Program-made: the position numbers and the translations under genes
Shown: one piece after another, positions 59 to 56,057 of the stretch
Layout: every line of letters starts with the position of its first letter
How positions within the stretch are numbered: the first letter of the stretch is position 1
The notes under the pieces: generated by a model
Told to the model about the DNA's origin: nothing
Databases searched by the model: none
The model's input: only the letters and a program-made list of their open reading frames with translations
Assembly (NCBI RefSeq): GCF_963676685.1
Contig: NC_092351.1
Coordinates: 25,358,001 to 25,422,000 of the forward strand
Length of the DNA: 64,000 nt
Origin: Mytilus edulis
Taxonomy: Eukaryota
Reading direction: 5' to 3'

Positions 59-186
59 CTAGACGAAAAGAAGCGGTCTCGCTTGTGTGAGTTACCAGAT
101 ACTGTCACTATACCATTAGAAGACTATGAAGACATGAGGAGAAAAATGAGACTTCAAAAACTAGAGCTCGATGAATTAAATTCTAG
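59..186 (+). CDS. Gene A exon (equivalent to exon 3): coiled coil LDEKKR...LELDELNS(R)
   Basis: ttatag acceptor at 58, AG|gtag donor at 187; ends like exon 3 of B (NELRSR) and C (DELRNR), phase 2. Confidence 0.75.
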
Positions 187-3100
187 GTAGTGTAACATTT
201 CAAATTAACTCTATAAGTAATCACATGAAGAAAATTTATCTCATTGGCAATCAATTTAAATCTTTAAATTCGATTTTATTACATATAGTAGAATTTTGAA
301 ATGTTAAGTATTTCGGGTCACAAATAAATATTTCAGTATAATTATGTAAAGGATATTTAATGAATGCATAACATATAACAAATAATCTTTAGTGCATAAA
401 ACATTAGTTCTTATTAAATTGTGCTTTAAGATAACATTTATGTAACATAAATTGAATCACAGCATTATATTATTGGCTCATTCGAGTCTACCTAGTCATC
501 AAATGTGACGTAACTATAAAGCTGTTTTATATTTACATATTAAGGTCGAGTAGAAGACAACACCACGGACAATACCTTGAACTTGGTACTAGTAACCCAA
601 TACGACCTACAAGAATAGGAGATATGTATGATGGTTTGTTTGACATACAATGGCACGAAGCACTGCCAGTAGTAATGGGACTGTATCCAGAAGAATCAGA
701 AGCATTTATATTTCTAAGAGACTTGCTATTGGTATGGTTTCCATTAAGAAATAACCCTGCGATTTCAAATACATTTTGGTTATTTGTATGATATTCGATT
801 GTATATGTAAACAAAGGGAAGATAAAACCATAACTCTGTACACAAATAAAATTAAAACAAGTTTAATGGTGAGATGCTCAATACTGATGCCCGCTATATG
901 TGTTAGGTTAAAATAAAATTTAATGAGTGATAAACGTGAACATGCACAAGGGCAGATACATTTTTAAAAGGGGGTTCTAACCTTATGTCCCCATTCAAAC
1001 GCATTGGTCGTCCAAAATAATGGGGTTGCAACCCGCGTACTCCTCTTGGATCCGCCACTGTTGCATACTGTGGTAAAGTATTACCACAAGAAGCTTACTT
1101 TCAAGTTTCAGGAATCTCTGAATTATAGTTCATTAGAAAAATGCGACAAAAAGTTTATTGGACAGAGGGATAAACATACGAAAGAAAAAAAAAGACCAAA
1201 AAAACTAATGATTTTATAAAACGGACGCCATCTAAACCAATGTAGATATGTGCATCAGAAGGGAAAGCAAATTAAGAACCACTAAAGACACCCGACCGTT
1301 TGATCGTGATCAGGATTAAAAATTCAGTGTTTGAAAAACCGATAAAGCTATGCACACTTACAAAATGTGGAAAGGAAATAACATTATTTTAACAAAAAGA
1401 ACCGAAAATCGGTAAGACCAGACTGAAAACAGATTAGACTTATAGCACGAGGAGGAAAGCAGACCAATAAATGTTACACCTTTCAAAACAAAGACATGAT
1501 GTGTCATTTGTTAACAAAAGAAAATAGAACATCTATTATATTCATTTTATGACACAGGTTATATAACATTGGTTAAATGACTGGTCATCAGTCTAGTAGT
1601 TATTCATTCTTTTTTCATATGAAACATGAAGTGAAAGTCACAAAAACACTTTTACTAAATTTAAACAGATACGCTTATACAAATCTTATATTTTCAATCT
1701 AGTAAGGAAAAGGTATCCATTTAATGTGTTTTCATTTAGAAAGCCTACGACTTTAGTTCAGACATTGCCAGAGACGAGCAGGAGAAATTGGTCAGTCATC
1801 TTAATAAATCTGTTTTAGAACCTACCTTACACATGGAAGGACAGGTAAGGGTCATTTACACATGACATAAATAATGAATAGAAGGTCGGTTGAAAACAAA
1901 ACTTTACGACAAAAGACATGATTTTAGCTTCCCAATTGTGAACTTTCCATTTTTATGCAGCAACATTGCAGCATCACCTGCATACGGAGTATATGTATCT
2001 CCCAATATATACGATATTCCCGGGCTTGTATTTCCTATCACGAGTTGGTTGACCGTTATGGAATAACCGTTTGACAGATGATATCGAATATGTCCCTTAT
2101 GTCCCAACTACAATACACTCCCCTTTTCACGAATGTGATCTTCCGAATTATAGTCTATTTACCGGGTTTGTAATATCATAAGCAAGACAACTGGTGCTAC
2201 ATTTGGAGCAGGATCTGTTTACCCTTCCGGAGCACCTGAGATCATCCCCAGTTTTTGGTAGCGTTCGTGTTGATTAGTTGTTAGTTTTCTCTGCTCTGTC
2301 TCCTGTATTTTATGTGTTTGTTTGTCTTTTTATTTTTAGCCATGGTGATGCCAATTTATTTTCTATCTATGAGTTTGACCGTCCTCTGGCGTGCCTCTAT
2401 GTGATGCTTGTTGCAACTATTTTAAAGCTCAAGATGAAAATCAAATATTTCTCATTTGGAAAATAAGCAAATATAATGTGACTGCGTTGTATATTGTTTA
2501 CTCGATAACAAGTACCTGCACAGTTAAAAACAAGAATTTGATGCGACTGTCATGCAAGTGTGAGGGTAAGCTAGCTTTAAAACCATGTTTAATACACCAT
2601 TTTGTACTGTGTAACCAAGTCAGGAATATGACAGTTGTTGTCCATTCGTTTTGGTGTGTTATAGTTTTTTATTTTGCCATTTGATAAGGGATTTCCTTTT
2701 TGAATTCTGCTCGAAGCTCAGTATTTTTATATTCAAGTATACTATCTCCTTTTCTTTTTGTAGGAATATCGTAAAAGGGCCAAAGACGATGCTGAAGTCA
2801 CTGCGCAGAACGAAATGTATGCAAAAGAAGTCAGAAAAGCAACAGCTATGAAATCTTTGCCATCTCTCTTTTCTGTAAGTTTATCTTCTTAAAGAAACTT
2901 TAAACTTATTGAACATTCATATAAAAAATGATATCTACTACGGTAGCGTTTTTAAAAATGTAAATACATAACAACGTTAGAAAGATCGATTCTGAAGATT
3001 AAATTCAACGTGAATATATATATACATTAAATATACAAATGCATATGCTTTTCAATTTTATGCACACGGTTTTAACTAAGATTGTATTTAGATCATAGTG

Positions 3101-3498
3101 AATAAATATGTAATTGTTTTCATTTCTCTAGTTCAGTTATGATTTTGTCTGATAGTACATGTAAACAAAACACAAGAATTATCACTATTGCTTTATTTTA
3201 GCTGTTTAAAAAGCTCTACCTCCAGGAAAACTTGAACTGGTCCGAATTTCAGCTTGTAGATAAACTAAGTAACTATTTGGATAAATGTGTTGAGATCACA
3301 TGGTTAATGAGTGTTTATGATCCGCCTCTGAGATTTGTGTTAGCCAGACATGATGAGCAAATAGACATGAGCAAATTTATGTATTTCCGGGTAAAAGGCA
3401 AGGTGACAGATTACACAATTTGGCCGGCACTGGTGTTATATCATGGTGGCCCAGTAATACGACATGGTCATGTTGTTCCGAAACGTCATACCAAATAA
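59..3498 (+). CDS. Gene A: MIEAP/SPATA18 C-terminal-domain coiled-coil protein, 5'-partial; join(59..186,545..731,1740..1844,2764..2874,3202..3498)
   Basis: Five AG/GT-bounded exons splice into one open frame (phases 2,0,0,0). Motifs RPTRIGDMYDGLFDIQW and YLDKCVEITWLMSVYDPPL...WPALVLYHGGPVIRHGHV match the MIEAP-like pattern and the equivalent exons of genes B and C. Confidence 0.85.
545..731 (+). CDS. Gene A exon (equivalent to exon 4)
   Basis: taag|G acceptor, gtatgg donor; SNPIRPTRIGDMYDGLFDIQWHEAL aligns with DKNRPTKIAENFHAVYDDEWTNAL in gene C. Confidence 0.85.
947..1060. mobile_element. Degenerate short MITE (CAGGGGCGGATCC-type termini)
   Basis: caagggcagatac...ggatccgccactg; flanks atgca/ttgca; same family as 8213-8364, opposite orientation. 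Confidence 0.55.
1740..1844 (+). CDS. Gene A exon (equivalent to exon 5): KAYDFSSDIARDEQEKL...EGQ
   Basis: ttcatttag acceptor, CAG|gtaagg donor, 35 codons in frame. Confidence 0.8.
1885..2390 (+). mobile_element. 3' fragment of a Penelope-like retroelement (RT thumb region plus 3' UTR)
   Basis: + strand translation LYDKRHDFSFPIVNFPFLCSNIAASPAYGVYVS..IRYSRAC is the C-terminal RT motif of Penelope-like elements. Confidence 0.7.
2764..2874 (+). CDS. Gene A exon (equivalent to exon 6): EYRKRAK...YAKEVRKATAMKSLPSLFS
   Basis: Polypyrimidine tract plus tag acceptor, gtaagt donor, 37 codons. Confidence 0.8.
3202..3498 (+). CDS. Gene A last exon: MIEAP-like C-terminal domain
   Basis: ttttag acceptor at 3201; contains ORF 3232-3498 with W-x-M-x3-DPP and WPAL motifs; TAA stop; AATAAA at 3578. 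Confidence 0.9.
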   Translation: MFKKLYLQENLNWSEFQLVDKLSNYLDKCVEITWLMSVYDPPLRFVLARHDEQIDMSKFMYFRVKGKVTDYTIWPALVLYHGGPVIRHGHVVPKRHTK

Positions 3499-6468: not shown

Positions 6469-6486
6469 CAAAAATTTTAAACTGTT

Positions 6487-9737: not shown

Positions 9738-9929
9738 ATGTCTGTAATACAGCCTGTAGGTCGGGGAGATTATTTCATTCCCCGAGAGTACAGGCGACGG
9801 CCTAACATTGAGGTGATTCTTCAAGATATGGAATCGTATATCAACAAGCGGACATTAGACGTGGCCGACCGAGAATATGTCACACTTATGGATAATGAAT
9901 ATCATCTCCTCAAGAAGTATCGAGATAAG
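9738..9929 (+). CDS. Gene B coding exon 1
   Basis: ttatag acceptor at 9696, aaaATG start, AAG|gttaga donor; PVGRGDYFIPREYRRRPNIEVIL homologous to gene C exon 1. Confidence 0.85.
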
Positions 9930-12900
9930 GTTAGATGGTTATCTTATATTTGAATACAGCATTCATTATGAATTTAATTAATTAAACTTGTTAATATAAT
10001 TTTAATCTGATAGTAGTTGATATTGTTTTATATAATTTAATGGGTTGTGAAATAAAATCTTGAAAACAAGGTAAGAAATAAATAGTTTTTTATTGGAAAA
10101 TAAAGATTTACAATATTTAAATCGAAAATAACTGATAAAAAATACACTTTTAAACACTCAAAGCGATACACTTAGATATTTTTAGCATCTGTCAACGTAA
10201 AGTTTGAAGTAGTAAACTTCTCTGTTCCAACTAGCTTTACCTAAAACAAATATTTTCGATTTTAACTGTTATATTCAAATTTCAATCATCTTATGATCAT
10301 TATAACCATAATACATGCAATGATGTATACATGCTCAATTAAATACTATACACCTCACCAATTCTAAACCTGTTCAAAGTTATTTATACTTGTTATTTGA
10401 GTGAAAGAGAAGAGACATCTTGATTTACTTGTCACTAATAGCGAAGGAATCTTAACTAATTTATGACAAAAGTCACGATTTTTGTAATTTATTTGGAAAC
10501 GGTATAAAAAAGGGGGAAAAACAGTTGTCATTTAATTCAAGATAGTAGCAAGGATATTCATGACAGATTTTGGTACCCACTAATACAAAGTAACATACAT
10601 TTGTCATTTCAGTATAATGCATATGTGCAAAACATACAAAGAATAGATAAGCAAATAGCAGCTGATTCCGACTTTTTGACTGCCAGTAACCTGTATGTAG
10701 TTCTAAAGAAAGCTTGTGATAACTGGCGCCCTAAGGGGAAAACTGCCATGGAAGAGTTTAGAGAACTTCAGAATTTTACAAAGCTTTATAGTGACTTAGA
10801 GCGTTCATATGTGAGTGTTATTAGAATTTAAAAGAATATTTCAGATGAGATCAGATTAACTAAGTAATTTGAGCTTAATTGTATTTATCAGATTATGAAA
10901 GTAGGTAGTCGTAGAGACTGATATGTATTTTTATATAGTCGTTTGATGTTCAGATTTTGAATGAGTATGGTATCGCATGGCGAGGTGATACACATAGCAT
11001 GAGACTTGTTACCTATTGACAAATTAGCTTTGCTTCTTTAGAGTTTATGCGATTCCGAAACATTTTTGTTTGTACTAATTTGTATATCATCAATACAAAG
11101 GATTTATTACACTTTAAACATCGATGAAAGACTGTTGCATTTTATTCTTAGACTAATTATGGTTCAAGAGGCACGACTTCAAAATTTAAATAAGCATCCA
11201 GATATAAAAGATGAAAACGTTTTATTGATAAATATTGTAGTAATGCTTCAGTACAAGTTTACTCTTTAATTTACCAAACATTGCAGGGTAAAGATGGTGG
11301 AACCTACAAATCTATTCCTAACGTCCATACCTCCATAATAGGGCAGCAACCCAAAGATCAATATAGTCCCCGTAGTCAGAGTTATGAATCTCCAAGATCT
11401 GATTCTAAGGCTTTGTCCATCTCGTATGTTCCGATAGAAGCTTATGAAAAGTTAGAAAGAAAATTGGGTAAACAAGAAGAAGTCATTGCAAGAAAAGGAG
11501 CAGAAATAAATGAGCTTAGAAGCAGGTAGTAAAGGGATTTTCTTTAAATTCATTATTCATAGTGAAGATAACAATAATATAAGCAATGCTAATACAAATC
11601 TATGGTTATGTGGGTTTGAACAACATAATAACGAGTGATTCTAATCTTGATAAAATATCAAAAAAGGCATTAAAAATAATTAATATATTCAACATTTAGA
11701 TAAGATCATTTCAAAACAATTAAAAATTACATGATTGTATCAATACATTATGTTAATATTGCTAAGAAGTAACATAAACAGCGCCTTGTATATTTACCAT
11801 ATAAAAGGATTGGCAGCATCTCAGCTAGGGATTCTTTTCCTGAACATCTTAGTCCTACAAAAATAGCTGATAAATTTAAGAATCTGTATGAAGTAGAATG
11901 GTACGCTGCTGTGGGATTGATTGGTACTAAACAAGGACAACGGAGGCATCAAACATCAGAGGAGGAGGACTATGCAATATATAAACTACTTCGAATAATC
12001 AGAGTAAGTGACAGTATATCACTTATTTTAAATGTGCGCATAAACACTTTATTAATAATCAGAGTAAGTGATATTATACATCTAAAAATAAAATCTTCAC
12101 AAATATTTTATCAAGTCAACTTATTGTCGTATAAACGTTAATTACTGGTTAGATCTGAAAATGTCTACCAAAAAACAAATACATTTACTGACTTCATGAT
12201 TTTCCGGCTAAATACACCAACAGAGGAGTATAGTATTCTTGAGTTATTACTTCGGTACCGCTTACTACAAACATGTACGATTAAAGGGCATGCACTCGCA
12301 CATATGTTTAACCCCGCCACATTAGGCATGTGCCTGTCTTAAGTCATGTTATTCAGTGGTTATCGTCTGATTCGTCGTTATTGTTCATTGTATCCCGTCA
12401 TGTTTTATTGTATTTTGTTTCCATTCAGTATTTCTTAAATGAAAATGCAGAGTTGAAGTGTTATTTAGTGAATTAGGTGAAAAAAAATAGAGATAATCCT
12501 GGTTTATCTGAGCTTAATGTAAAATAGTGAGATAATCCTAGTTTATCTGAGAAAATCCTAGTTTATCTGAGATAATCTAGGATTATCTATAAAAGTGGTT
12601 CAGGCGTGCCGTAGATATTGATATTTGTTCTGATTTTTTATGCATTTTGATGACCTTAATATAACATTGATCTTTTATTATGCATTTTTTTAACGAAATA
12701 GCAAACCAAAACAACCATGAAACGAATCATATACCTGAGTGTATTTTTCGCAATCTCCAATAAATATAAGAATATGGGGTATGAGTGCCAATGAGACAAC
12801 TCTTCATTAATCTCAATACTTTTAAAAATATTCTAATTCAAACTTTAAAATATGACATATATTATTCTGAATGAAAAAAACTCACTAAATCATCAGAGTC

Positions 12901-15900
12901 AATGAATAATTATTTATAAATCTTGAAATATATCTGCAAAAACACGCTTATCAAGTTAGCTTATTGTTGTATGAATGTTTATTACTGATAAGATCTGAAA
13001 ATGCATACAACAAATATATTTACTGACTCTTTCCATGATTCTCCTGCTAAATACACCAACAATGAAGTATAGTATTCGTAAGTTATTACTTCGGTACGGC
13101 GTACTACGGACATGTTTGAATAAAGGGCATACACCCACAAGCATGTTTAATCCCGCTGCATCATCTGCATGTGCCTGTCTTAAGTCATGTAATTCAGTTG
13201 TTATCGTTTGATGCTGTATATCATATTTGTTTTTCGTTCATTGACTTGTATCTATACTATTAAACGAGAAGACCTCATTTTGTGTGTCGCTTCTCTTCCT
13301 TCCACAATAAATTAATCATCATGCCTCTGTGACCTATAGGTACCATGTATTGTCGCATTTGTCATCCATTCTTATGATTATTCAGTTTATGTTATTTTGG
13401 GGAAAAAAACGAAAAAATCTGCGTCCGGATATTTTTCCGTCATTGGACGAAATTTTAAGTCAGACTAGACATCCGGTTTGCGTTTTTCTGTACTTTGTAC
13501 ATAACAAAGACTACGAATAACGTGTATTTGCTATCTGCTATCATTTTCAAGTTTACTATCCACGGCGGTCACTGAGTTTATTAAATAGAGAGAGTCTATA
13601 TATTGAAATCAATAGGGAAAAAATATAGGAGTTTTGGAGGAAAAAAAATAGGAGCCGGGCTAGAAAAACAATTGTCATGTCCCAATAACTTTTGATACCT
13701 TTTCTGAAATTCTTCAGTCATAAAATCTTTTACAAACATTCATCGGGTCACAAAGTATATTAAATATAGAGTGTCTATATAATATATCAATGACCGCCGT
13801 GGATTGATTATATATATAGTTAACTGAGAATTGATAGTAAAAAGCAAACACACTTTATTTATAGTAATGTATGTTTATAACATACTAAACGTATGTTTAT
13901 ATTGAAATAAATAGAAAACAAAAAATTGGAAATTTTGGGAAAAAAGGAGAAGGAGTTGAAAAACAATTGTCCCGCTGTCCCAAAGTACCTATAACTTTTA
14001 TTACGTGACCTTTCCTGGATATCTCCAGTCATTATTTTTTTTTATAGTAAAAAGCAAACACACTTTATTTATAGTAATGTATGTTTATAACATACTAAAC
14101 GTATGTTCATATTGGAATAAATAGAAAACAAAAAATTGGAAATTTTGGGAAAAAAGGAGAAGAGGTTGAAAAACAATTGTTCCGCTGTCCCCAAGTACCT
14201 ATAACTTTTATTACGTGACCTTTCCTGGAAATCTCCAGTCATTATTTTTTGATAGTAAAAAGCAAACACACTTTATTTATAGTAATGTATGTTTATAACA
14301 TACTAAACGTATGTTCATATTGAAATAAATAGAAAACAAAAAAATTGGAAAATTTTGGGACAAAAGGAGAAGGGGTTGAAAACAATTGTCACGCTGTCCC
14401 CAAGTACATGTACCTATAACTTTTATTCCATGACCTTTCCTGGAAATCTCCAGTCATTATTTTTTATACAAAAATTCAACACAACACTTTACATACTTTC
14501 AACCACGCTCTGGATGCCCGCGGTTGTGTTCTAGCATTTATCATCCTTGCTTAAAGTATTTCAGTTTGGGTCATTTTGGGAGGAAAACGAAAATATAGGT
14601 GTCCATATATTGTTTCCGTCATCGGACTGACTTTTGAGAAATATAATTTAAGACTTCCGCTGCCCTTTAGGCCTGTTTTGAAATAAAACATAATTTGCAT
14701 AAGTACTTGGGACAGAACAATTATTTTTTGCGTTTTTCTGTATACTATGATCATACATATACTATAGATAAAGTGTATTTGCTATTTATATATATTATCA
14801 ATTCCGATAGTTTTCTATCCTCGGCGGTCACTGAAATATTTCTGTATACTACATACATATATACTATGAATAAATTGTATAAATTTGCTATAATTTACTA
14901 TAAATTCCCCTGAATAGTTTACTGGGGTGACTTATAATATATCAGTGACCGTTTTATATAGTAATGTATGTTCATAGTATACAGAAAAACAGAAAGAATA
15001 AAAATCGGTATTTGAAAAAAAGGGGGAGGGCAAAAAAATGTGTCCAGTCCCCAAGTACCTTTGACAAAAACATCAGAAATGTACAGATTTTGTTATATTG
15101 ATGGTCTATCTAAAATTTCATAATTAAAACAATTGTCCTCAAAATTGTTATTGACTCCCTTACACATGAAGTCTATTGCTGTCTGATTTTTTAAAGAAAT
15201 TTAACTAGATAAACTTACGGAAATATAATTAGGAATACACTTTACATTCATAAACAAAAAAAATAAGTTTCTATAGGTATAAGAATGTATAGACTAAACT
15301 TTGTCAGATGAAAAGGTCCAATTTGGACGGCAAATTTCAGCTTTTTATTGCTCCGCTTGGCTATGAAAAATATAAAATAAACTATCGCACCAACCTTGCA
15401 CCAAAAAGATTTTTTATCCGAAGTTTGATATGTATGAACTTGTCAAAATGTTAAAATTTCTAATTGGTGCAAGCATGGTGCGGTGGTCAAAATTTAGAAA
15501 AACCATCAAATTTTCGGTATTTTTGCTTATTTTCCCAATTATGACGTCATTTGCACCTACCATTGTGACGTCATTGAACCTTTTTTAGTTAAATAAAAAC
15601 ATTTTTTTAAAATCATTTTCTCATATTCTAATAATTTATGGAGAAAAATCTGCTCTGTTAGAATTTTCATTATCTTGTAAATCTGGGGCCATTTTAGGCC
15701 ATTAAAGCCCCTACTCCTTTGATATATATTAAGTATAATGTATATCGACTATCATTATAATAAATATACTATGCTCTTGATTGTAATATATGTAATGCTA
15801 TTTCAACAGTATGGCTACACTTGGTGTAAAAAGCTGGCTGCAGAGCAGTTGAATGAACTTTCTGATGCTATGTCACAACCTGTAGCAGATCCTGGTGTGA

Positions 15901-18900: not shown

Positions 18901-19024
18901 AACAAAATATATATTTTATAAACAGAAAGATAAAGGACGGAAAGTAAAGGTTCCTGTCTGGCCAGCTCTTTACCTACAAGAGAAGGGACAGCTTATAACA
19001 AAAGGTTTTGCAAAAGGATACTGA
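9738..19024 (+). CDS. Gene B: MIEAP-like domain protein, 446 aa; join(9738..9929,10613..10810,11287..11525,11808..12003,15810..15917,17422..17538,18734..19024)
   Basis: Seven GT-AG exons total 1341 nt in one frame (phases 0,0,2,0,0,0); exon-by-exon similarity to A and C; C-terminal WYMCILDPPM...VWPALYLQEKGQLITKGFA. Confidence 0.9.
10613..10810 (+). CDS. Gene B coding exon 2
   Basis: tttcag acceptor, gtgagt donor, 66 codons. Confidence 0.85.
11287..11525 (+). CDS. Gene B coding exon 3 (S/P/Q-rich linker plus coiled coil)
   Basis: ttgcag acceptor, AG|gtagta donor, phase 2. Confidence 0.85.
11808..12003 (+). CDS. Gene B coding exon 4
   Basis: aaag|G acceptor, gtaagt donor; SPTKIADKFKNLYEVEW. 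Confidence 0.8.
12085..13250. repeat. Diverged ~320-bp direct duplication in gene B intron 4 (about 12085-12400 and 12925-13250)
   Basis: Shared blocks agatctgaaaatg...gctaaatacaccaac...gttattacttcggtac...gcatgtgcctgtcttaagtcatgt. Confidence 0.75.
13251..14534 (+). mobile_element. Non-autonomous Helitron-like element with internal ~210-bp tandem repeats
   Basis: 5' A|TCTATACTAT, 3' imperfect hairpin then CTAG; three units starting atagtaaaaagcaaacacac at about 13834, 14044 and 14252; related sequence continues to about 15060. Confidence 0.65.
15810..15917 (+). CDS. Gene B coding exon 5
   Basis: caacag acceptor, gtaaga donor; YGYTWCKKLAAEQLNEL. Confidence 0.85.
15978..17028. mobile_element. 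Non-autonomous DNA transposon, TGT...ACA termini, 4-bp TSD (Ginger-like)
   Basis: TIRs of about 110 bp (tgttccggaccatatgagtatttgg...); ttac on both flanks; arms built from the palindrome gaccatacgcgtatggtc. Confidence 0.85.
17422..17538 (+). CDS. Gene B coding exon 6
   Basis: ttgcag acceptor, gtatgt donor; QQARDFRKQMAVSSVDAVVD. Confidence 0.8.
17903..18425 (-). mobile_element. SINE-like repeat, longest copy of the family in this window
   Basis: Similar to 6487-6742 and, inverted, 19490-19870. Confidence 0.7.
18734..19024 (+). CDS. Gene B last exon: MIEAP-like C-terminal domain
   Basis: ttgcag acceptor; within ORF 18728-19024; TGA stop. Confidence 0.9.
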   Translation, partial: RFKIEVIKDELGMDTQQLSPTVIKFIHKAAELLWYMCILDPPMYIAWPEYNEPFDTTKYIFYKQKDKGRKVKVPVWPALYLQEKGQLITKGFAKGY

Positions 19025-21545: not shown

Positions 21546-21559
21546 GCTATGTCGCCGAT

Positions 21560-45800: not shown

Positions 45801-48800
45801 GAAAATTTTATTCTACGTTTGTACTATCCTGAACTTATTTCATAAATACTGAAAAACTCTTTTTCACTCGTACTGATAAAAGGGTTGCGTTATTTTTTAT
45901 TTGTAAAATAATATTTATTGACCAATTTATTATTTTGTATACCACATTATGTTGCTCTAGTTGCACACAATATGTGCCTGGGTGTATTAAACTTGTCTTG
46001 ACTTGATAATAAACGATTGAAATAGATACAGTAAACACATTTAAAGCTAACAAGTTGTTATTGTTGGCATTTTTTTTATATGTATAGACCAATGGGAATA
46101 GATCATATTAATAATAACGGTATTGAAGACTTGATCCCTTTAATAGGCCACTAGTCTAAATACCACATGTTAAGGTACACGGTAAGATATATTCGTTACA
46201 TAGTGTGCTAGTGACCAAATACGATACATATGGTGTCCTAGTGTAATAATACGATATACATGATATATATTGGGTCAGTAAATTCCATATGAGGATTCGA
46301 GTTTCTTTGGCAGACTTTATAAAGCTTAAACAGTATCTGAGCGAAAAAGTTGATGAGCCAGGGATATGTCAAAAAAGAACTTTTCATAGTTTATTCTGTC
46401 AAGTCATGATACGGCATCTTCTTTTTTCTTATATATATCTGAGTAGCAGCCATATCATGTGCTGTTGGTATATAATATTGCTTCTAAGGTGGGGGATATT
46501 GATAATTTCATAATAAAAATTGTCTCGTTTGTCATAGATCCTGGACTAGTACTGAGATGACCGCTTATTTCAAATAAGAGGTATGAGTCTAAACATAAGG
46601 CAGTGGAAGCCGTGTCTATTGTTTTTTTTTAATTTCTAGTTCTTGTGGATATATTAATGGAACCAAATCAGAAAAGTTGGGATTGTTAATTTTAAAGAAC
46701 GTCATCACTTTATCTGAATGTGAATTTAAATGATCTGGCTTCTTTGATCTTCATGTTTTTGACAAGAGTATGAAGGAACCCCAACTCAACAGAACATACG
46801 AAGAGGTCGACAAGGAGAGCCACACCGTTTGTTCCCATATAGGAATGCCAAAAAAATAAACCAGGTGAGATCGTTTATTTGTTTGATGATGTTTCAGAGC
46901 ATTTTGTAAAATGATTTTTCCATATTTTTGAAAGATAATGTTTTTTGTTTTCTAGGTTAAGTGGGTTTGCCAGCAAACAACTTACAGAAGGAAATCCAAA
47001 TTTTACGGATTTGAGTGATAAAAACAGACCAACAAAGATTGCAGAAAACTTTCATGCCGTTTATGATGACGAATGGACAAACGCATTAGAAGTATTGTCT
47101 TCACCGAGGAAGGGAAAAATGATAGAAGATGAAGCAATCCACAAATTAATGAATCTTGTGAAGGTATGAACCAGTAATATTCTAGGTTACCTGAAGGTTG
47201 TATCAAATTGATAAAATGGTCAGATCATATTTGGAACTAAAATGGTCGCTATGGCAAAATAGAAGATTTACGAATATTACTCATGATACTATGGTGTATT
47301 TGATAAGCAGAATATTATTCTTGCATGAATTACGTTGAATGATTGCCTAGTATCCTTTTGCTATTTACACCACTGGGTCTATACCACTGTTGGTGGACGT
47401 TTCGTCCCCGAGGGTATCACCAGCCCAATAGTCAGCACTTTTGTGTTGGCATGAATATAATTTATATGATTATGTTTATAAATTCACTGTTTGAAAAAGT
47501 ATGAATTATTCGAAATATCTGTACTAAGTAATTTCTTATCCAAGGCACATATCACCTTAGTCGTTTTTGGCACAACTTATTGGAATTTTGGGTCCTCAAT
47601 GCTCTTCAACTTTATACTTGATTGGCTTTCCAAGTATTTTGATCTGAGCGTCACTGATGAGTCTTGTGTAGACGAAACGCGCGTCTAGCGTATCAAATTG
47701 TAAGCATGATACCTTTGATAAATATTCCTGATAATCCATTTGATTGTTTTGCTCCTAACTTCACCTAGTATAGAATAAAGGATATAAAGGAGGACCCAAT
47801 GATGAAAGAAAAATTGTATATCGAATACGCCAATTTTTGACTTTGGACTTCAAATTGTAGTGGTTTTGTTTTAAGAAGGGAAAGGTGCATTATCTTTAAT
47901 TTTGTCAATGTAAACAAGTGGTTCAAATCATAATATTACGGCTTCAATGAAATGATTTTAACACATGTTGGTGATGATGATGTATTTGTACATCTTACTT
48001 TACTCAACATTCTTGCTGCTTACAATTATCTCCATCTATGATTAATAAATAAAGGCAACAGTAGTATACCGCCGTTCAAACTTATAAATCCATGGACAAA
48101 AAAACAAAATCGGGGCAACAAACCAAAACCGAGGGAAGCGCATCAAATACAAGAGGAGAACAACGACACAACACCACAATGTAACACATATGAACTTGGC
48201 CCAGTAGTTTCAATGGAAAATGATAGTAAAAATTTACAAATTTTATGAAAATTTAAAAAAATTTCCTTAAAATTACCAATTCAGGGGCAGCAACCCAACA
48301 ACCGGTTGTCCGGTCCATCTGAAAATTTCAGGGCAGATAAATCTTGACCTGATAAACAATTTATCCTCGTCAGATTTTCTGTAAATGTTTTGGTTTTTGA
48401 GTTATAAGCCAAAAACTGCATTTTACCCCTATGTTCTATTTTTAGCCGTGGCGACCATCTTGGTTAGATGGCCTGGTCACCGGACACATTATTTTAACTA
48501 GATACCCCTAAGATGATTGTGGCCAAGTTTGGTTAAACTTGGTCCAGTAGTTTCAGAGGAGAAAATTTTTGTAAAAGTTAACGACGACGGACGACGGACG
48601 CAAAGTGATGAGATAAGCTCACTTGGCCCTTCGGGCTAGGTGAGCGAAAAATTATCCATTGTCAAGTAAAACACTCAATAATTATATTATAAATTTGCTT
48701 CGAAATGCTGTTGTAAGGTTTCTAATACGAAACTTTGTGATATTTACGTGATCATGATTTTTTACTGGGCAGAAAGTTGTCCATGCGAGTTCAATGCAAT

Positions 48801-51800
48801 CAAAAGTAATTTAAAGAAAAGGATTGCATGACTCCAAAATGGAACGACACCTGTTGCGTCGATATGATAAGCGTGTTCTGTCATGCATACATCACTTACC
48901 ACGCAAATCCAAACTCAGTCAAAATGTTACAATTGGGAAAAGGAAACACACGGTATTAATACAAATCACAAGACTTTTTTGGTGTCTACACATCTAAAAC
49001 CGCCAAAAATGTTGGTATTAAGTTGAGACACAGTCACATCGTTTCAACCAATTTGTGCTGTCGACCGTAACACCCACGTAGTGTCAATTTCAGTGGTTTT
49101 TCCTCTCAACTCTATTTCGAGTAATTTTCGGTTAGAAGCCTACTCCTGTAAGTGAAGTCCTTATAGTGTGTAAACATGAACGGACATAACATATTTATTG
49201 TGATATGCAAACGCCCTACAATTGTGGAAAGGTAATGTTACTGTTGATAAGATGGGAGATGACAGTTTAAGTTTTAATGTAGAGAATTTTTACCGTTTCA
49301 CTGGCTTCTCTTTAGACTGGTTTACGCCTGTTTAGCACTCATTTTGATAGGACCTAAAAATTGATAGTATTCAGTTTGTCAAAACTTAAGTATTAAAACA
49401 GAAGATCGCTCATGTCGAAAGTCTTCATTTCTCTTATATAATTACATAACAGGCTTAATTTTCCTTTGTTTTTACGACGGCTTAATAATTTTTAGTAGAA
49501 GAATTATGCCTATGTTCATAATCACTGGTGTCCGAATAACTATATATCCTGATTAATACAAAAATATCCACATACATCGCAAGTCAATATATTAAGTGAT
49601 GTAAAAATGTATAAACATTGTGTTTTATAAAGATCCGTTTTATCTTCAATCTATATATTTTTGTGTGTATTCCAAAACGCGGGTTGAAAGGGCAACACTA
49701 TGGCGTATTTGGTGTAGAATTTGGAGTGTTGGCTTTCGATATTGTCCTACAACTTATTCCTAGAGACTCAACGGGAATATATGTAAACAAATCATCGTAA
49801 TTTTGAACTTTAAAACCCCGGCATTTTGTTATTCCACCAAATCATCAAAGTTAGTTAAATTGTAACCATTCAAAAGGGAAATCGCTCGAATTTACATTCA
49901 TGTGAACATTTCTAGTTCTAACTCAAACCTTTTCTGTGGAATGACTTAATCATATCCTCAAATTTGGTTATTCTTAATTATCAGATGCAGTAATTCATTT
50001 GCGTGATAATTGAGAACACTCATCTTATATAAACGATGCATCTTTTGTAGGAGATATACAAGTTTTGTTGCAGTACCGCCACTGACCAGACCTTAAACAT
50101 CGCAATGAACATTTTAAAACCCTATGCAATTGATACAGTGAGTATTGCGTCTAATATTGCAATGTAGTATCCTTAATAAAAAAATTGTAAGGGTTCCGCG
50201 GAACCCAGTGTCTCGCCTACTTTTGCTGTAAATTGCAGGATCAACAAAAATGAGGGAAAAATCAATAAAAATATTCTGCTTGATACCATGTTTGGATTGT
50301 AGGAAGCTTCTGTCCAAGTTTGGTAAAAAATCCTGGATAGTTTATGAATCTAATAAATGTTTTAAAAACTTTAACTGCAGACTGGATGTAATGTTAACTG
50401 GAAGAAAAACAAAGTCCATTATAAGTAAAATACAGATACACAGGTACAAAATATTAACAAAATTTCCTTCTAGATACTAGCTTTTGATCATAAACAAGCT
50501 TCTGTCTTAGTTTGGTACAAATAAAAAATAGTATAAGAAAGGTCAAGAAAGTTATAAAAAATTTAAAAAATTTAACCACAGAGTGAATGTGTTGTTTCCT
50601 GGCAGAAAAAAAGTCCATTTAAAGTAAAATATGGAAAAAATGGATTTGTCATTTTACAAAATTTACTTCTGGATACTATCTTATGATCACAAACAAGCTT
50701 CTGTCCAATTTGGGTACAAACCAAGGATAGTTTAAGAAAGTTATTAAAATTTTAAAAACTACAACCACAGAGGGATGTAATGTTTTCCCGCAGAAAAACT
50801 AAGTGCATTTATAAGTAAAATACGGAAAAATTGGAATTTTATTTTCACAACATTTACTTCTGGATACTATCTTATGATCATAAATAAGCTTCTGTCCAAG
50901 TTTAGTAGAAATCCAGGATAGTTTAAGAAAGTTATATAAATTTTAAAAACTTTAACCACAGAGTGTATGTAATGTTTTCCCGCAGAAAAACTAAGTCCAT
51001 TTATAAGTAAAATACGGAAAAAATGGAATTTTATTTTCACAAAATTTACTTCTGGATACTATCTTATGATCATAAACAAGCTTATGTCCAAGTTTGGTAG
51101 AAATCCAGTATGGTTTAAGAAAGTTATTAAAATTTCAAAAACTTTAACCACAGAGTGAATATTTGTGGACGCCGCCGACGACGACGACGACGGAATGTAG
51201 GATCGCTTAGTCTCGCTTTTTCGACTAAAGTCGAAGGCTCGAAAAAAATGAAACACATATACAAGATTTTCAATTTCTTTTAATTCGTTTCTACCCTTTG
51301 CATATATTCACAAATGAGGTAAACGAATCTTGTATAGAAGAACTTCGTATACTTACAGATAGTAAATGCCATTTTTGTTTAAAAAGAAATTATGATCACA
51401 CATTTTGCTTGAAAATGCAATCTTTTAATTTTATTGATTCAAGTTCCGCAGTCAGAATACCCCCCTCCCCCCCCCCCCTTTGCTAAACCCGGCCCTCCAA
51501 CAAAAACAAACTGATTTGAGTAATGATAGATTTAGTACCAATACAGTGAACCTTGTTCAATTGTTTAGATTTATCTTAATGTGAACAGAGACTTTTATTT
51601 AATGAAAATGAAATTAGATTATTAGAATGAATGAACAATTAAGATATAAAATATGTTCTTTTTTTCTTTACCTTAAATGACAATATAGAACTTTATGCCA
51701 TGGAATATTTGTAGAATTTTTTTTTCTCGCAAATAGCCAAAAGATTTAAACAAAAACTTCTTTTTGCGTTTATGTCTAATGTATGATGACAAATAATTAC

Positions 51801-54800
51801 ACTCAACGGTGATATATCTAAATGGCAACCAATGTTGACCATATTTAAAATTGTCGCGTTTGTGAACTTCATTTAAATAAAAACAGACATAGAAATAGGC
51901 AGATGTGTTGTGAGTGCCAATGAGACAACTCTCCATCCAAATAACAAATTTTAAAAGTAAACCATTATAGGTCAATGTACGGCCTTCAACACGGAGCCTT
52001 GGCTGTAACCTAAATTTGTGAAAAACACATTATGAAACATGAAGATGTGTTTATGCGACCAGAACATAATGCTTTTTAGACTAACTTATATTTAAAGCGG
52101 TTCATAAAATGATTTTGAAACAAAGATATATAACTTTAGAATGTGTAAACTGCATTTTAAATTTGATTTGAAGTGTTAGTCATTCATGAATCTGGTGATT
52201 CTTCACTTCAACCATCAGTGTATAATAAAATACATCTGACCTAATATTATTTGGTAAAACATATTTAATGTGACAAAATTGCGAAAACATTCGCGGATTT
52301 TGATAGTATAGAGTATTGAATTAATTTATCGTTTAATTGATCCTAATCTGTTATTAAGATAATGCTTAAGTTAACTTTAAATATGTTCTTTATATAGGAT
52401 ATGGCACATAATTTTGTGTTTACAATATTGAACGTTATATTTAGCAGCAACCAGGTGGAAAAGACGATGGAAAAGTGTTCAGGCCTGGTTTAGAGCCTAA
52501 GATAAAGCTTTTGCGACGTGAATATTGTATGGAACCTATTGCAAACATCACAGAGGTTTGTGTCTACAATTACCATTTTGAGATAAGCACTTGGCGTTGA
52601 TGCATTTAATATATTGAAGGGTTAACTTGAAGTGAATCATTTAAGAGGCTAGATGAAGTCCACCTCCGGGTGCGGGATTTTTTCGCTGTGTTGAAGACTC
52701 TGGTGGTCTACGGCTGTTTTCTACTCTATGTTCGGGGGTTGTTGTCTCTTTGACATATTCACCATTTTCATTCTGAATTTTATGTAGTATCCAAATATAA
52801 AGTTGAACGGGATTTCATGAATTTTGAGTACTCTAAAGTTATTTAAATACAACGATCATAGATACCAGGATTAAATTTTGTAATCACGCCAGACGCGCGT
52901 TTCGTCTACAAAAGACTCATCAGTGACGCTCGAATCCTAAAAAGTTAAAAAGGCCAAATAAAGTACGAAGTTGAAAAGCATTGGGGACTAAAATTCCTAA
53001 AAGTTTTGCCAAATACAGCTAAGGTAATCTTTTCCTGTGGTAAAAAAACCTAAGTATTTCAATAATTCAAAAGTTTTGTAGACAGTTGATTAATCAAAAA
53101 TGCCTATATCAATGATACATAAATGCAACAGTAGTATACCGCTGTTCGAAACTCATAAATCGATAGAGAGAAAAAAAAAACAAATCCGGGTTACAAACTA
53201 AAACTGAGGGAAACGCATCAAATATAAGAGGAAAACAACGACCCAACAGAAACGCAACATTAAAATGTAACACACACAGAAACGAACTATAATATAACAA
53301 TGGCCATTTTTCTGACTTAGTTCAGGACGTTTTAAGAAAAAAATAATTCATGTCAGCACAAAAGTGCTGACTACTGAGCTGGTGATACCCTCGGGGGATT
53401 AAAACTACACCAGCAGTGTCATTGACCCAGTACTTGTAAATAAACTCATCATAGATACCAGGATTAAATTTTGTAATCACGTCTGACTCGCGTTTCGTCT
53501 ACAAAAGACTTATCAGTGACGCTCGAATCCAAAAAAGTTAAAAGGTCAAATAAAGTACGAAGTTGAAGAGCATTGAGGACCAAAATTCCTAAAAGTTTAG
53601 CCAAATACAGCCCAGGTCATCTATCGCTGAGGTAGAAAAACCTTCGTATTTCAAAAATTCAAAAGTTTGTAAACAGTTAATTTATAAATATGACTTTATC
53701 AATTTATAATTATATAATTTTTAATATATAATTCAGCTTAGGTTTTTTTCTGGTGAAAAGAGTAAATATTGAAAATGTGGTATTATTGCCAATAAAGCAA
53801 TTAAAAAAAAACCCAAGGAGAGTGGATAATTAATGGCATTGTACAATCTTGCATTTTACCTATTTGTTTTAAATGAGTTTTCAATCTTTAACGCAAAATA
53901 GAGTTTTTGATATTGAAAATGAGGTAGACATTCTGTATTTGTAACTTTTTATATGTATATCATCGATTTGAATTATTATCCGAATGATATTTGTTGTGTC
54001 TTATTTCAAGTCCCATATTTTGTTTTACTCACAAACGTAGACAGGCGCTTTTTTAGTAGAATATCGTCATACATTACTCCAATGATCTTAAAGAAAGTAT
54101 TCACAGACCTTCATTCACAGATTAACATTATATACCTCCTTTTTCTTTTTTTATTCAAATGATATATGGATTTCTTATATCAAAAAATAATTCGTAAACA
54201 CTATTAAGATCTATAAAGACACCAACTATTTGTTGTTTATATGACTGCAACGTACTGATCATCGACGTTGAGGTTAACCTTTTAATCGGGGCACATCGAA
54301 CTCAACAAACATTTTTACCATGCATGTTTTCAACAATATGCATGATGATGAGTCTCATTTAGTGTTTGAAAATCGATGAAAACAGGACGGGGTTGTGGTA
54401 ACGAGAATTATATGATATCCACAGTCATTTGTACTACATATATTCCATAAATTTCTACATACTCTCGATTTCGTTAGTCAAACTTTCGAACGAATCACCC
54501 CTCGTCTAAAAGCTTCCTCGATGTCACTGCTGGTAGAGTGTTTATTCCCCGAGGGTATCACTAGTCCAGTAGTCAGCACTTCTGTGTTGACATGAATAAT
54601 CATAGATATGGTCATAATTATAAATGTATTGTTTACAATACTTTGAATTTATGAAATACTAAGGCTTTTCTTCCGCAGGAATTAATTATCCTTGCTGTAT
54701 TTGGGAAACCATATATGAACTTTTGGTCCTCAATGCTTTTCAACTTCGTTCTTTATTTAGGCTTGTCAACTGTTTTTGATTTGAGCGTCACTGATCAGTC

Positions 54801-56057
54801 TTTTGAAGACGAAACGCGCATCTGACGTAAATACAAAATTTCCATCCTGATATCTATGATGAGTTTATTCATATATCCCCAGCTTTCAATTTTTGTTTTG
54901 TTTTGTTTAAACGTTTCCAATACAGGTATACGTATTCTGAAAGGCTCTTTCAGCGCTCCACATTTGTAACAAAATGTTTCATTTTCATTGTCTGGTACGG
55001 CTTCAGATTGAGTGTTCTTTTTGAGCTTATCACTAGAAGAAGGTGCATTAAAATGATTTATTACACACTTTTTAACATTTTTTGTTCATTAATTCAGTTA
55101 ATTTAAGAAACTTGAATTTCAACTTATTAGGGAAAGTTGACCCTAGATGGTTATAATTATTTAATTTGTCGGGTATATTGTTTACACACAACTTAATTTT
55201 TTTGTTTGTTTTTAACACTCCTGATAAATGTGAATCTAGCGCTTTAGACACACAAAATGTATTATCCGCGCTTTCAACAGCGAGTGGTGTACAGTGGAAG
55301 AATGACAAAACGACTTTAAGGACAGGCAATCATACTTTAGCATATCATGGACTTTTTAAGTTTCTTGCATTCATTATTAATTCAGAATACGTTGACTGTT
55401 CTGCAAAGTCTGAACACTTTTAGTAAATATGACCCATGTTGTGTATTTTTTTAAATTTAAATACATGCATAGTTTGGAATTTGGTATGTAATAAAAGATT
55501 AGATATCAATCAAACGACGCAAGTTTTCCTCAAATATACATTACGAGATCACCACAAAGAGTTCAGAGATGTACAGACTTAACACATCAAACACTAGCAA
55601 GACAGTCTTCACAACTAGATGCGATTCGAAAAAAAGATACTAAAAATCAGCAAAAGAAAACCACGAACGACAATTATACCAACAAAAGACTTCATCTATG
55701 GAAAGTCAAAATCCTGCATCAACTGTTTCTTTAAAGCTTATAAACCTCGATTATAGAATGATATTGTATCTTTTACTTTTTCAGAAATTTAAGAGAACAA
55801 GTGAAGATTTCAAAATAATGCAAAAGTACCCAGAAGTAGTTAAATATATAGAAAAATGTACAGAACTTTTCTGGCTTATGCGAACGATTGATCCCCCAAT
55901 GGTACTGAAATGGCCAGAAGGTGGCGAAGTCTTAAACGTTACTTTATATAACCATTACAACAAAAAGGGTGATAAGGTTTCATACGCTGTCTGGCCTGCT
56001 GTATTGTTACATGAAGGAGGAGCAGTAATGTATAAAGGGTTTGCCAAACCACAATAG
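27658..56057 (+). CDS. Gene C: MIEAP-like domain protein, 429 aa; join(27658..27813,32299..32493,37430..37689,46956..47163,50051..50137,52445..52555,55785..56057)
   Basis: Seven GT-AG exons total 1290 nt in one frame, with the same phases as gene B; each exon aligns by eye with its B counterpart; LSDKNRPTKIAENF and WLMRTIDPPM...VWPAVLLHEGGAVMYKGFA motifs. Confidence 0.88.
31035..31292. mobile_element. Short Helentron/HINE-like fragment
   Basis: tttttatgctcc...(gtcc)n microsatellite...cttgttt arrangement. Confidence 0.5.
32299..32493 (+). CDS. Gene C coding exon 2: FSKFIREYK...LRTDLYRALRER...EFYFLFRLSEEYDLLE...NQ
   Basis: Polypyrimidine tract plus ttag acceptor, CAG|gttagt donor, 65 codons. 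Confidence 0.8.
33590..33900. repeat. Fragment of a DNA-transposon end rich in (tg)ctgcag repeats
   Basis: Starts cactgaaaaaa; many tgctgcag/ctgcagca motifs; no matching right end found. Confidence 0.5.
34014..34055 (+). ncRNA. Hammerhead motif with mutated core (CUGAUUA), retrozyme fragment
   Basis: cgtca-ctgatta-gtcttttgtagac-gaaa-cgcgcg-tc-tggcg. Confidence 0.55.
34258..35219. mobile_element. Degenerate TGT...ACA non-autonomous DNA element with tgtcc/ggaca repeats
   Basis: Imperfect ~45-bp TIRs tgtaagacataatagtgtcc... / ...ggacattattaaattctaca. Confidence 0.55.
35225..35406. repeat. Short interspersed element made of (t)cggga repeats
   Basis: About 9 ttcgggat-like motifs in 180 bp. Confidence 0.55.
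35410..35830 (-). mobile_element. tRNA-derived SINE-like repeat (tRNA-like head 35648-35740)
   Basis: - strand gccaaggTGGTCGTGTGGtctagcgcg...GGTTCGAATCCcgg gives Pol III A and B boxes; the acceptor stem does not close. Confidence 0.65.
36255..36822 (-). mobile_element. Degenerate Penelope-like 3' fragment (same family as 1885-2390)
   Basis: Reverse complement of 36715-36820 encodes a frameshifted DFSF.IVNFPFLCSNIPVAP..GVYI.QLIRYS. Confidence 0.6.
36890..37125. repeat. ~122-bp tandem duplication
   Basis: tttctaaaacagaataataaaatgcttc...cttaagttgcagaa present twice. Confidence 0.75.
37430..37689 (+). CDS. Gene C coding exon 3 (Q/S/T-rich linker plus coiled coil)
   Basis: taaag acceptor, AG|gtacgt donor, phase 2; ORF 37433-37705. 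Confidence 0.8.
38287..39829. mobile_element. Non-autonomous PIF/Harbinger-like element (TTA TSD)
   Basis: Perfect TIRs gggaacgaccatttgatattc / gaatatcaaatggtcgttccc with tta on both flanks. Confidence 0.8.
40641..41330 (+). pseudogene. DIRS gag-like ORF1, frameshifted
   Basis: RQKLIKLTDSSELGWRVGKEYTTYPIADDSEDEKKM and degenerate knuckle CFNRGNKRHWANDC. Confidence 0.8.
41500..43320 (+). pseudogene. DIRS RT / RNase H / methyltransferase-like ORF, with stops and frameshifts
   Basis: FDIRSAYHH, VLPFGI, MFLDDGL; FCDASD, SSTWREL, TDNQNV, ADKLSR; WGPYTIDRFA...DAFSQNW...N*LVPPP...SAPFWP. Confidence 0.88.
43334..44356 (+). pseudogene. DIRS tyrosine recombinase, frameshifted
   Basis: GFLRYDEL, SKTDQYRQG, LHSLRAGSATAAA, RHGRW and KDGY supply the R-K-HxxR-H-Y residues. 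Confidence 0.88.
45159..45560 (+). mobile_element. Degenerate LINE ORF1-like fragment
   Basis: ELQWRSMNNNIIISGI...VHRF...IMTKFVSLKDKQLV...KLKGTNISV.EQFP...RRKNLY resembles the L1/L2-type ORF1 RRM-CTD. Confidence 0.7.
46956..47163 (+). CDS. Gene C coding exon 4
   Basis: tctag acceptor, AAG|gtatga donor; LTEGNPNFTDLSDKNRPTKIAENFHAVYDDEW. Confidence 0.9.
47649..47690 (+). ncRNA. Type I hammerhead motif with intact core and one stem I mismatch, in retrozyme-like copy 47362-47723
   Basis: cgtca-CTGATGA-gtcttgtgtagac-GAAA-cgcgcg-TC-tagcg. Confidence 0.7.
47960..48650. mobile_element. Helentron/HINE copy (family of 20808-21545) interrupted by a SINE-like fragment at about 48045-48188
   Basis: Long similarity to 20885-21545, including (gacg)n and the terminal hairpin. 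Confidence 0.75.
50051..50137 (+). CDS. Gene C coding exon 5: EIYKFCCSTATDQTLNIAMNILKPYAIDT
   Basis: ttttgtag acceptor, gtgagt donor, 29 codons; matches the Y-x-F/W-C-x3-A-x2-Q pattern of A and B. Confidence 0.8.
50185..51248. mobile_element. Helentron/HINE-like element carrying a ~191-bp tandem array
   Basis: 5' palindrome gggttccgcggaaccc; units with cttctggatactatcttatgatca at 50666, 50857 and 51049; (gac)n; terminal hairpin ttcgactaaagtcgaa. Confidence 0.75.
52445..52555 (+). CDS. Gene C coding exon 6: QQPGGKDDGK...IKLLRREYCMEPIANITE
   Basis: ttag|cag tandem acceptor, GAG|gtttgt donor, 37 codons. Confidence 0.75.
52856..53705 (-). mobile_element. Head-to-tail retrozyme-like dimer (monomer about 365 nt) with a 228-bp SINE-like insertion at 53118-53345
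   Basis: Two hammerhead motifs at 52887-52928 and 53480-53521; tandem repetition of the flanking sequence. Confidence 0.8.
52887..52928 (-). ncRNA. Intact type I hammerhead ribozyme motif
   Basis: Reverse complement cguca-CUGAUGA-gucu(uuugu)agac-GAAA-cgcgcg-UC-uggcg: stem I, stem II, full core, GUC site, short palindromic stem III. Confidence 0.8.
54786..54827 (+). ncRNA. Degenerate hammerhead motif (CUGAUCA) in retrozyme-like copy 54525-54870
   Basis: cgtca-ctgatca-gtcttttgaagac-gaaa-cgcgca-tc-tgacg. Confidence 0.5.
55785..56057 (+). CDS. Gene C last exon: MIEAP-like C-terminal domain
   Basis: ttttcag acceptor; within ORF 55698-56057; TAG stop; AATAAA at 56207. Confidence 0.9.
   Translation, partial: KFKRTSEDFKIMQKYPEVVKYIEKCTELFWLMRTIDPPMVLKWPEGGEVLNVTLYNHYNKKGDKVSYAVWPAVLLHEGGAVMYKGFAKPQ

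Follow-up and report, generated by a model that had tools for sequence, protein, structure and literature searches.

The nucleotide exchange factor GrpE works as a dimer: its long helix and its beta head bind the nucleotide-binding domain of an Hsp70 chaperone, the cleft is opened and ADP is released; to our knowledge, exchange factors of this type are known only from prokaryotes and organelles. Two protein families have undergone large ancestral expansions in bivalves according to Regan 2021 (PMC8382680), namely the Mieap family (OG24; 807 genes, 53.1 per bivalve vs. 0.6 in other molluscs, three of the duplications dating to the bivalve ancestor) and an Hsp70 family (OG10; 68.1 per bivalve, likewise with duplications in the bivalve ancestor). 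HspA12 is described as massively expanded in bivalves and of unknown function in a recent review (PMC13580251). Here we analyzed a window of 64,000 nucleotides from Mytilus edulis (contig NC_092351.1, positions 25,358,001 to 25,422,000; chromosome C8 below), in which an initial annotation had recognized three diverged genes with a C-terminal MIEAP domain, here designated A, B and C. These genes are members of the large bivalve MIEAP family, an expansion that is already known, and structure prediction gives the domain they have in common a GrpE-like fold. MIEAP genes also occur beside HSPA12-type Hsp70 genes and fused to HSPA12-like domains, and these proteins are likely partners of HSPA12, as exchange factors or related regulators.

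The analysis started from a six-frame motif scan of the window for W-x-M-x3-DPP and WPA, which placed both motifs at three positions, all on the + strand. Five, seven and seven exons were assigned to A, B and C, respectively (Table 1), with AG/GT at every inner end and joined frames that lack internal stops. The intron phases are 0,0,2,0,0,0 in B and C, and likewise in A once two further phase-0 exons just upstream of the window (L031:8889-9050 and 9382-9573) are added to the five within it (59-3498); no start codon was found for A, upstream exons included. Gene B (9738-19024) encodes 446 amino acids and gene C (27658-56057) 429. The 19 exons in three same-strand paralogs with open frames and matching phases, as initially annotated, are thereby borne out. 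The divergence judged by eye (below about 50% even in the last exon) is also real, with measured pairwise identities of 25-30% over the whole protein and 27-43% in the last exon. The assignment of the C-terminus to MIEAP holds for all three genes, as their last exons score 37.4 (A), 49.4 (B) and 54.5 bits (C) with Pfam MIEAP (PF16026), above the gathering cut-off of 27 bits, and the M. galloprovincialis counterpart of gene B reaches 52.3 bits over profile positions 2-192. The segment RPTKIA..F..LY..EW stands as a consensus but not as a shared motif, since no single gene fits all of it.

Model B is 98.4% identical to M. galloprovincialis LOC143085440 (RefSeq) over all 446 amino acids without a gap, and model C is 86.9% identical to M. 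californianus LOC127714130 over 429; orthologs are thus kept between Mytilus species at 98% and 87%, and both counterparts are annotated in databases as uncharacterized. For gene A no close full-length relative was present among the 152 proteins compared (best about 31%). At least five of the six introns of gene B are seen as joints (10810-11287, 11525-11808, 12003-15810, 15917-17422 and 17538-18734) in contigs from two runs that are presumed, not recorded, to be RNA. At genes A and C, contigs start at acceptors, or at most two bases from them, with extra letters upstream, and no joint is found among those listed, the listing for gene C being filled by repeats; raw reads of two runs (about 6% sampled) gave almost no depth over exons. 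Because of the open frames, contig joints and orthologs, an artefact or a set of pseudogenes is ruled out, and A, B and C are intact, spliced coding genes; for A this is based on the frame, the splice signals and one acceptor-starting contig.

The structure of full-length gene B product was predicted with AlphaFold2 (monomer, 113 sequences, pLDDT 83.4) and its last exon was folded separately (pLDDT 93.9). The full-length model starts with an N-terminal helical bundle (residues 22-131), which a disordered linker connects to a long helix (180-216); four more helices (226-388) lead to a small beta head (394-445). With the last-exon model, ranks 1-11 in Foldseek were all GrpE/GrpEL1 (probability 0.96-0.47, E 0.053-0.46, TM score 0.43-0.53), the next family following at a probability of 0.07. 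In VIA-align the same model reached Z≥5 in four of 48,161 chains, all of them GrpE (6.1, 6.0, 5.8 and 5.0; next 2.8), over 72-88 residues and with root-mean-square deviations (rmsd) of 2.8-6.4 Å, the E. coli GrpE aligning at 2.8 Å over 72 residues. When 640 of the Foldseek chains for the full-length model were re-aligned, GrpE took ranks 1-5 (Z 5.8-6.3), with 144-147 residues, most of GrpE, aligned within model residues 172-446 at an rmsd of 8.2-14.2 Å, and the two highest Foldseek probabilities for this model were also GrpE. In the predicted model the coiled coil or long helix, the helices and the beta head follow the same order as in GrpE, and the beta head has the GrpE fold. The AlphaFold and Foldseek check proposed for the C-terminal domain thus returned GrpE as the best match with a sharp gap to the next fold (0.47 vs. 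0.07; Z 5.0 vs. 2.8). The N-terminal helical bundle of A-C matched no Pfam family, and structure searches with the full model gave only generic bundles for it (Z up to 5.6). In the PDB, no relative of gene B came up by sequence; a profile gave only coiled-coil noise and the last exon of gene C only chance matches. A structure search of the ESM Atlas with the MIEAP part returned molluscan MIEAP clusters only.

An intact four-exon gene for a 579-amino-acid Hsp70 of HSPA12 type (L031:1023-5966; C8:25349023-25353966) lies on the same strand as gene A, its end about 3 kb upstream of the earliest exon identified for that gene. A profile of 20 paralogs of this neighbor matches BiP/DnaK structures (E 3.5e-8), and its last exon scores only 16.9 bits with Pfam HSP70, distant from canonical Hsp70. 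We take the gene to be of HSPA12 type from its motifs, the profile match and the structure match of the related fused domain. Its intact frame carries DFGTT, EPEAA, GGGT and VGG, compared with DxGTT, EPxAA, GGxT and LxGG in the Hsp70-12 ATPase motif list given in PMC12692333.

Genome-wide, HSPA12 genes were represented by the best 150 of 187 first-exon matches and the best 116 of 211 last-exon matches. An HSPA12 gene occurs within 20 kb of 4/26 MIEAP clusters on C8, vs. 0.58 expected by circular shift (p=0.002), and of 3/26 clusters when the neighbor of gene A is left out (p=0.014). The control families showed no comparable excess near MIEAP clusters on C8, with 2/26 for B-box genes (p=0.19; 41 on C8 among the best 150 of 3294) and 0/26 for C1q (7 on C8 among the best 150 of 955). 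At L055 (C8:28.920-28.930 Mb) an HSPA12 and a MIEAP gene stand head-to-head, with less than 2 kb from the HSPA12 start to the first detected MIEAP exon, so that a shared promoter is possible, and at L052 the two are tail-to-tail and at most 3 kb apart. Two long HSPA12 open frames in the genome, considered as full-length copies, turned out to be only long first exons, and an intronless full-length HSPA12 was found at 0/80 short metagenome loci. Most full-length canonical Hsp70 genes are also on C8 (35.81-35.83, 52.84, 57.14 and 59.87 Mb). First exons of HSPA12 adjoin B-box exons, or alternate with them, at C14:67.79-67.97 Mb and C8:29.16-29.18 Mb, and B-box-HSPA12 fusions or linkage are possible there.

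The two families are also joined in single proteins. A single-exon frame on C11 links an HSPA12-like domain (21% identity, E 5e-24) to MIEAP; in this genome the frame is interrupted by one stop. When longer relatives were sought, four proteins came up, all of them open fusions of 632-732 amino acids, from M. galloprovincialis (two), M. trossulus and M. californianus, with an HSPA12-like part at 22-24% identity (E 1e-22 to 1e-27). A structure search of the ESM Atlas with fusion residues 1-427 gave molluscan HSPA12A clusters (TM score 0.54-0.60). Four single-exon HSPA12-like copies (L036, L172-L174; C11:43.50-43.57 Mb) are present in M. edulis, at least three of them fused to MIEAP. The fused domain lacks the long helix, and the fused HSPA12-like copy lacks the HSPA12 C-terminal domain. 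None of the 150 representative matches contains an HSPA12 domain.

The same class of partner is indicated by three independent lines: the predicted fold, the neighbor excess taken together with the fusion, and the fact that OG24 and OG10 both expanded in the bivalve ancestor. Given the GrpE-like predicted fold and the HSPA12 neighbors and fusions, genes A-C likely encode helpers that regulate HSPA12 chaperones, and we see about an even chance that MIEAP proteins are nucleotide exchange factors of HSPA12 or close regulators of it.

A number of results weigh against this proposal. Foldseek gave no match at E≤0.001 with either the full-length or the last-exon model (best 0.053), all Z scores are below 8, identity to GrpE is 8-18% and the full-length rmsd is 8-14 Å; when the full-length model was searched against the 48,161 chains, GrpE took ranks 2-3 (Z 5.8), level with unrelated helical bundles. 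In the MIEAP model the long helix and the head are separated by four helices, including two long ones, and GrpE has fewer there. An hhalign comparison with a 17-sequence GrpE alignment was not significant (probability 2.3%, E 0.02), although it pairs the MIEAP stretch 'g..fd' with GrpE 'g.pfDP', and Pfam scans gave no GrpE match, PF01025 finding only the true mitochondrial GrpE genome-wide. Membership in the GrpE family proper is rejected, as the sequence test failed, and because of the Z scores, the low identity and the hhalign result we call the domain GrpE-like in fold and keep it out of that family. As to linkage, 22/26 MIEAP clusters lack an HSPA12 neighbor at a distance of up to 20 kb, and 76/116 of the scored HSPA12 genes (best 116 of 211) are on chromosomes other than C8. 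This set is biased, because it holds the best candidates from a C8 query. B-box genes are C8-enriched as well (41/150 scored), so that a common chromosome is not specific to MIEAP and HSPA12, and MIEAP was absent at 80/80 short metagenome HSPA12 loci, a weak test at 385 kb in total. Every fusion copy examined in M. edulis is broken by stops or frameshifts, including three extra copies at C11:43.52-43.57 Mb, the fused domain lacks the ATPase motifs and the fusion is known only from Mytilus. The published mechanism of human Mieap ties it to cardiolipin condensates without mention of Hsp70 (PMC10845071), and OG10, which we infer with the help of PMC13580251 (in its available portion) to be mainly HSPA12, is not so described in the main text of PMC8382680 as far as that text is accessible.

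It may be that the GrpE likeness is a convergence or a remote relic without Hsp70 binding, and that neighbors and fusion are by-products of two families duplicating on the same chromosome, with birth-and-death evolution of the array. The non-significant profile match, the C8 enrichment of B-box genes, the broken fusion copies examined here and the missing HSPA12 neighbor at most clusters fit such a coincidence. Nevertheless, MIEAP is fused to exactly the class of protein that GrpE binds, the fusion cluster is on C11 and not on C8, and the fusion is open in three other species; in addition, the local excess was found for HSPA12 and not for the control families, and in structure GrpE is sharply set off from the next-ranking fold. 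We regard coincidence as quite improbable.

The N-terminal part of MIEAP proteins appears to be exchangeable. Near the end of the window lies the probable first exon of a further gene, D, encoding two B-boxes and a coiled coil. This exon ends in a phase-2 donor at 62368, and 13 kb further downstream exons 4-7 of gene C, but not exons 1-3, are present as a recent duplicate (L041-L042, C8:25433333-25445755). The B-box exon joined to these exons gives a stop-free frame of 487 amino acids; in exon 6 of the duplicate the first AG is gone, and the following AG would be used instead. The database protein P0041 has the same B-box-MIEAP layout and junction (E 4e-37), and an intronless B-box-MIEAP gene is present on C2. 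Gene D is thus a probable chimeric gene, apparently formed by exon shuffling. Two MIEAP loci, L034 (C2:4.59 Mb) and L035 (C5:38.14 Mb), are intronless and probably retrocopies, one of them encoding 780 amino acids with B-boxes and a long coiled coil.

If MIEAP proteins are exchange factors of HSPA12, the following model may be proposed: the long helix would dimerize, and the beta head would grip the nucleotide-binding domain of an HSPA12 and open it for ADP exit. The N-terminal modules would set place, client or trigger, by way of the helical bundle in A-C, the B-box and coiled coil in D and others, and a dead HSPA12 domain in the fusion, and the divergence of the paralogs would track that of more than 100 HSPA12 partners. 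In the database proteins P0013 (Dreissena), P0031, P0051 and P0111, two to four MIEAP stretches occur in tandem, which could make a GrpE-like dimer in one chain. L033, L039 and other loci on C8 have long low-complexity tails beyond the beta head (last-exon open frames of 250-470 amino acids).

The same modularity would also suit a role in immunity; the initial annotation had thought a diversified stress or innate-immunity family probable. MIEAP proteins with a conserved GrpE fold would then be decoys, sensors or adaptors that bind Hsp70-type proteins of host or pathogen and signal through swappable N-termini, the dead HSPA12 domain of the fusion being an integrated decoy. This is consistent with exon shuffling at the phase-2 intron, which links B-box/coiled-coil modules to MIEAP, with the lost ATPase motifs of the fused domain and with the very divergent paralogs. 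MIEAP is over-represented in gill transcripts of another mussel according to PMC5549309, and bacterial conflict systems hold Hsp70 together with GrpE, some of these Hsp70 being truncated (PMC7159879). However, the orthologs are kept across Mytilus species at the levels given above, gene C and the recent duplicate of its exons 4-7 differ by 12 non-synonymous and 9 synonymous changes (pN/pS 0.33, from few sites), not above 1, and Regan 2021 places Mieap among old conserved duplications rather than recent immune expansions (PMC8382680). We consider an immune role of this kind rather unlikely.

The mussel genome contains at least 83 MIEAP loci, at least 72 of them on C8 and at least 22 in one array at C8 25.32-25.70 Mb that holds the window; the locus count merges two genome searches (75 and 86 rows), minus four rows that were further pieces of counted loci, and its numbers are lower bounds. 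The 'three-gene cluster' is accordingly dropped in favor of this 22-locus array, and the view that the system is undescribed is rejected, because the bivalve Mieap expansion is in print (OG24, PMC8382680) and B and C have annotated counterparts. A phmmer search with gene B gave 596 clusters at 50% identity; among ten whose source was checked are sequences from Mytilus, scallop, oyster, pearl oyster, zebra mussel and a unionid. In a tree built from 96 columns of 81 head domains (deep support weak, no vertebrate sequence) A, B and C fall, with weak support, into a group of 33-35 rows with scallop and pearl-oyster proteins. The best Pfam MIEAP scorer is on another chromosome (L037, C4:83.80 Mb; 99 bits vs. 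34-53 for A-C). It stands apart from A-C in the tree, where its partner (98/95, long branches) is the MIEAP gene head-to-head with HSPA12 at L055. The suggested old, lineage-specific expansion, of genes that are probably not simple SPATA18 orthologs, is supported by the number of loci, the weakly supported place in the tree, the location of the best Pfam scorer and the pN/pS value.

The published interpretation of the family is mitochondrial quality control or cardiolipin metabolism in hypoxic and oxidative stress, as for vertebrate Mieap/SPATA18 and independent of HSPA12. It is given in PMC8382680, the human mechanism is described in PMC10845071, and a Dreissena 'SPATA18' spot is altered under cadmium (PMC11036304); the Pfam scores above cut-off agree with it, as does the similar layout, in which a disordered linker and a coiled coil are present. 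For bivalves, though, this function is carried over by domain name alone, A-C lie far below the best SPATA18-like locus in Pfam score, and the GrpE fold, HSPA12 neighbors and fusion are left unexplained. We think this interpretation unlikely to hold for A-C as an account of its own; it is not exclusive, because a GrpE-like activity could underlie the vertebrate phenotype. A wider proposal is that MIEAP/SPATA18 is an unrecognized animal branch of GrpE and the dedicated exchange factor of HSPA12, elaborated in bivalves, where both partners multiplied, into a combinatorial chaperone system (dozens of exchange factors, more than a hundred Hsp70s) with swappable sensors and decoy fusions and acting in humans, as the p53 target SPATA18, through HSPA12A/B or mortalin. 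This we advance tentatively, as somewhat short of an even bet.

Table 1 Exons of the MIEAP-domain genes in the window (positions counted from the first letter of the window)
Feature	Position	Strand	Remarks
Gene A exon 3 (phase-2 end; linker plus coiled coil)	59..186	+	Exons 1-2 upstream of window
Gene A exon 4 (RPTRIG..Y..LF..QW helix; MIEAP domain starts)	545..731	+	
Gene A exon 5	1740..1844	+	
Gene A exon 6	2764..2874	+	
Gene A last exon (helix and beta head)	3202..3498	+	Pfam MIEAP 37.4 bits; one sequencing contig starts exactly at 3202
Gene B exon 1 (ATG; N-terminal helical bundle)	9738..9929	+	
Gene B exon 2 (N-terminal helical bundle)	10613..10810	+	Joint 10810-11287 in contigs
Gene B exon 3 (phase 2; disordered linker, long helix at model residues 180-216)	11287..11525	+	
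Gene B exon 4 (MIEAP domain starts)	11808..12003	+	
Gene B exon 5	15810..15917	+	
Gene B exon 6	17422..17538	+	
Gene B last exon (GrpE fold predicted; helix plus small beta head)	18734..19024	+	Pfam MIEAP 49.4 bits
Gene C exon 1 (ATG matches that of M. californianus protein)	27658..27813	+	
Gene C exon 2	32299..32493	+	
Gene C exon 3 (phase 2; linker plus coiled coil)	37430..37689	+	
Gene C exon 4 (RPTKIAENF..VY..EW)	46956..47163	+	
Gene C exon 5	50051..50137	+	
Gene C exon 6	52445..52555	+	
Gene C last exon	55785..56057	+	Pfam MIEAP 54.5 bits
Gene D probable first exon (two B-boxes and coiled coil; phase-2 GT donor)	61581..62368	+	Splicing inferred

Repeats and fragments of mobile elements lie between and within the genes. 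Intron 3 of gene C contains an element of about 4 kb (40641-44648) with reverse transcriptase, RNase H and recombinase-like frames, which may be read as DIRS-type; a joint that skips it is found in 4/4 runs, and therefore an empty-site form exists. Tandem arrays are located at 4169-5778 (48 bp units), 13831-14465 (210 bp), 20073-20429 (21 bp) and 50304-51157 (192 bp), and fragments of retroelement frames at 4598-5281 and 21547-21837.

No literature linking MIEAP/SPATA18 to GrpE or HSPA12 was found, subscription journals and structure-classification databases, which may record the likeness, being outside the search. Mieap, SPATA18 and HSPA12 are absent from a 2025 GrpE review (PMC12987570), GrpE and HSP70 from the Mieap condensate paper (PMC10845071), Mieap from the available portion of a 2026 Hsp70 review (PMC13580251) and Mieap/SPATA18 from Kaur et al. 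2020 (PMC7159879). Both the fold predicted here and the connection to HSPA12 are apparently new. SPATA18/Mieap is a human p53 target without a solved relative in the PDB searches made. If the proposed exchange-factor role is true, one hypothesis would cover two of the largest ancestral expansions of bivalves and offer a simple biochemical assay for both orphan families, in mussel and human.

Among described systems, OG24 of Regan 2021 shares with the present genes the Pfam domain, the lineage and the old duplications (53.1 mean copies vs. at least 83 loci here), but is assigned to mitochondrial quality control by name, with no GrpE fold, HSPA12 linkage or fusion noted in the accessible part (PMC8382680). 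Vertebrate MIEAP/SPATA18 (PF16026; PMC10845071) likewise carries its MIEAP domain at the C-terminus, preceded by a coiled coil and disordered stretches, whereas A-C appear to be distant paralogs with another N-terminus, the best SPATA18-like locus being that at C4:83.80 Mb. In the bivalve HSPA12A/B (Hsp70-12) expansion, to which the neighbor of gene A corresponds in carrying four of the listed Hsp70-12 motifs, no co-chaperone is named in the available portions of the two sources (PMC13580251, PMC12692333). The GAP1-N2 conflict systems (Kaur et al. 2020, PMC7159879) offer an analogy in a repurposed Hsp70-GrpE pair, in which the Hsp70 sometimes lacks the peptide-binding domain; unlike MIEAP, they are prokaryotic operons around GTPases with a canonical GrpE. 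GrpE/GrpEL1 with DnaK/mortalin (PDB 1dkg, 4ani, 3a6m, 9bls) resembles MIEAP in the predicted order of helix, helices and head, in a superposable head and in the class of partner, the Hsp70 nucleotide-binding domain, which for MIEAP is suggested by neighbors and fusion. MIEAP differs from GrpE in its 8-18% identity without a significant profile match, extra long helices, variable N-termini and dozens of paralogs, and its inferred partner HSPA12 lies outside the DnaK/mitochondrial branch served by GrpE. As a gene cluster alone the locus is ordinary, three members of a published expansion; the predicted fold and the suggested partner are not.

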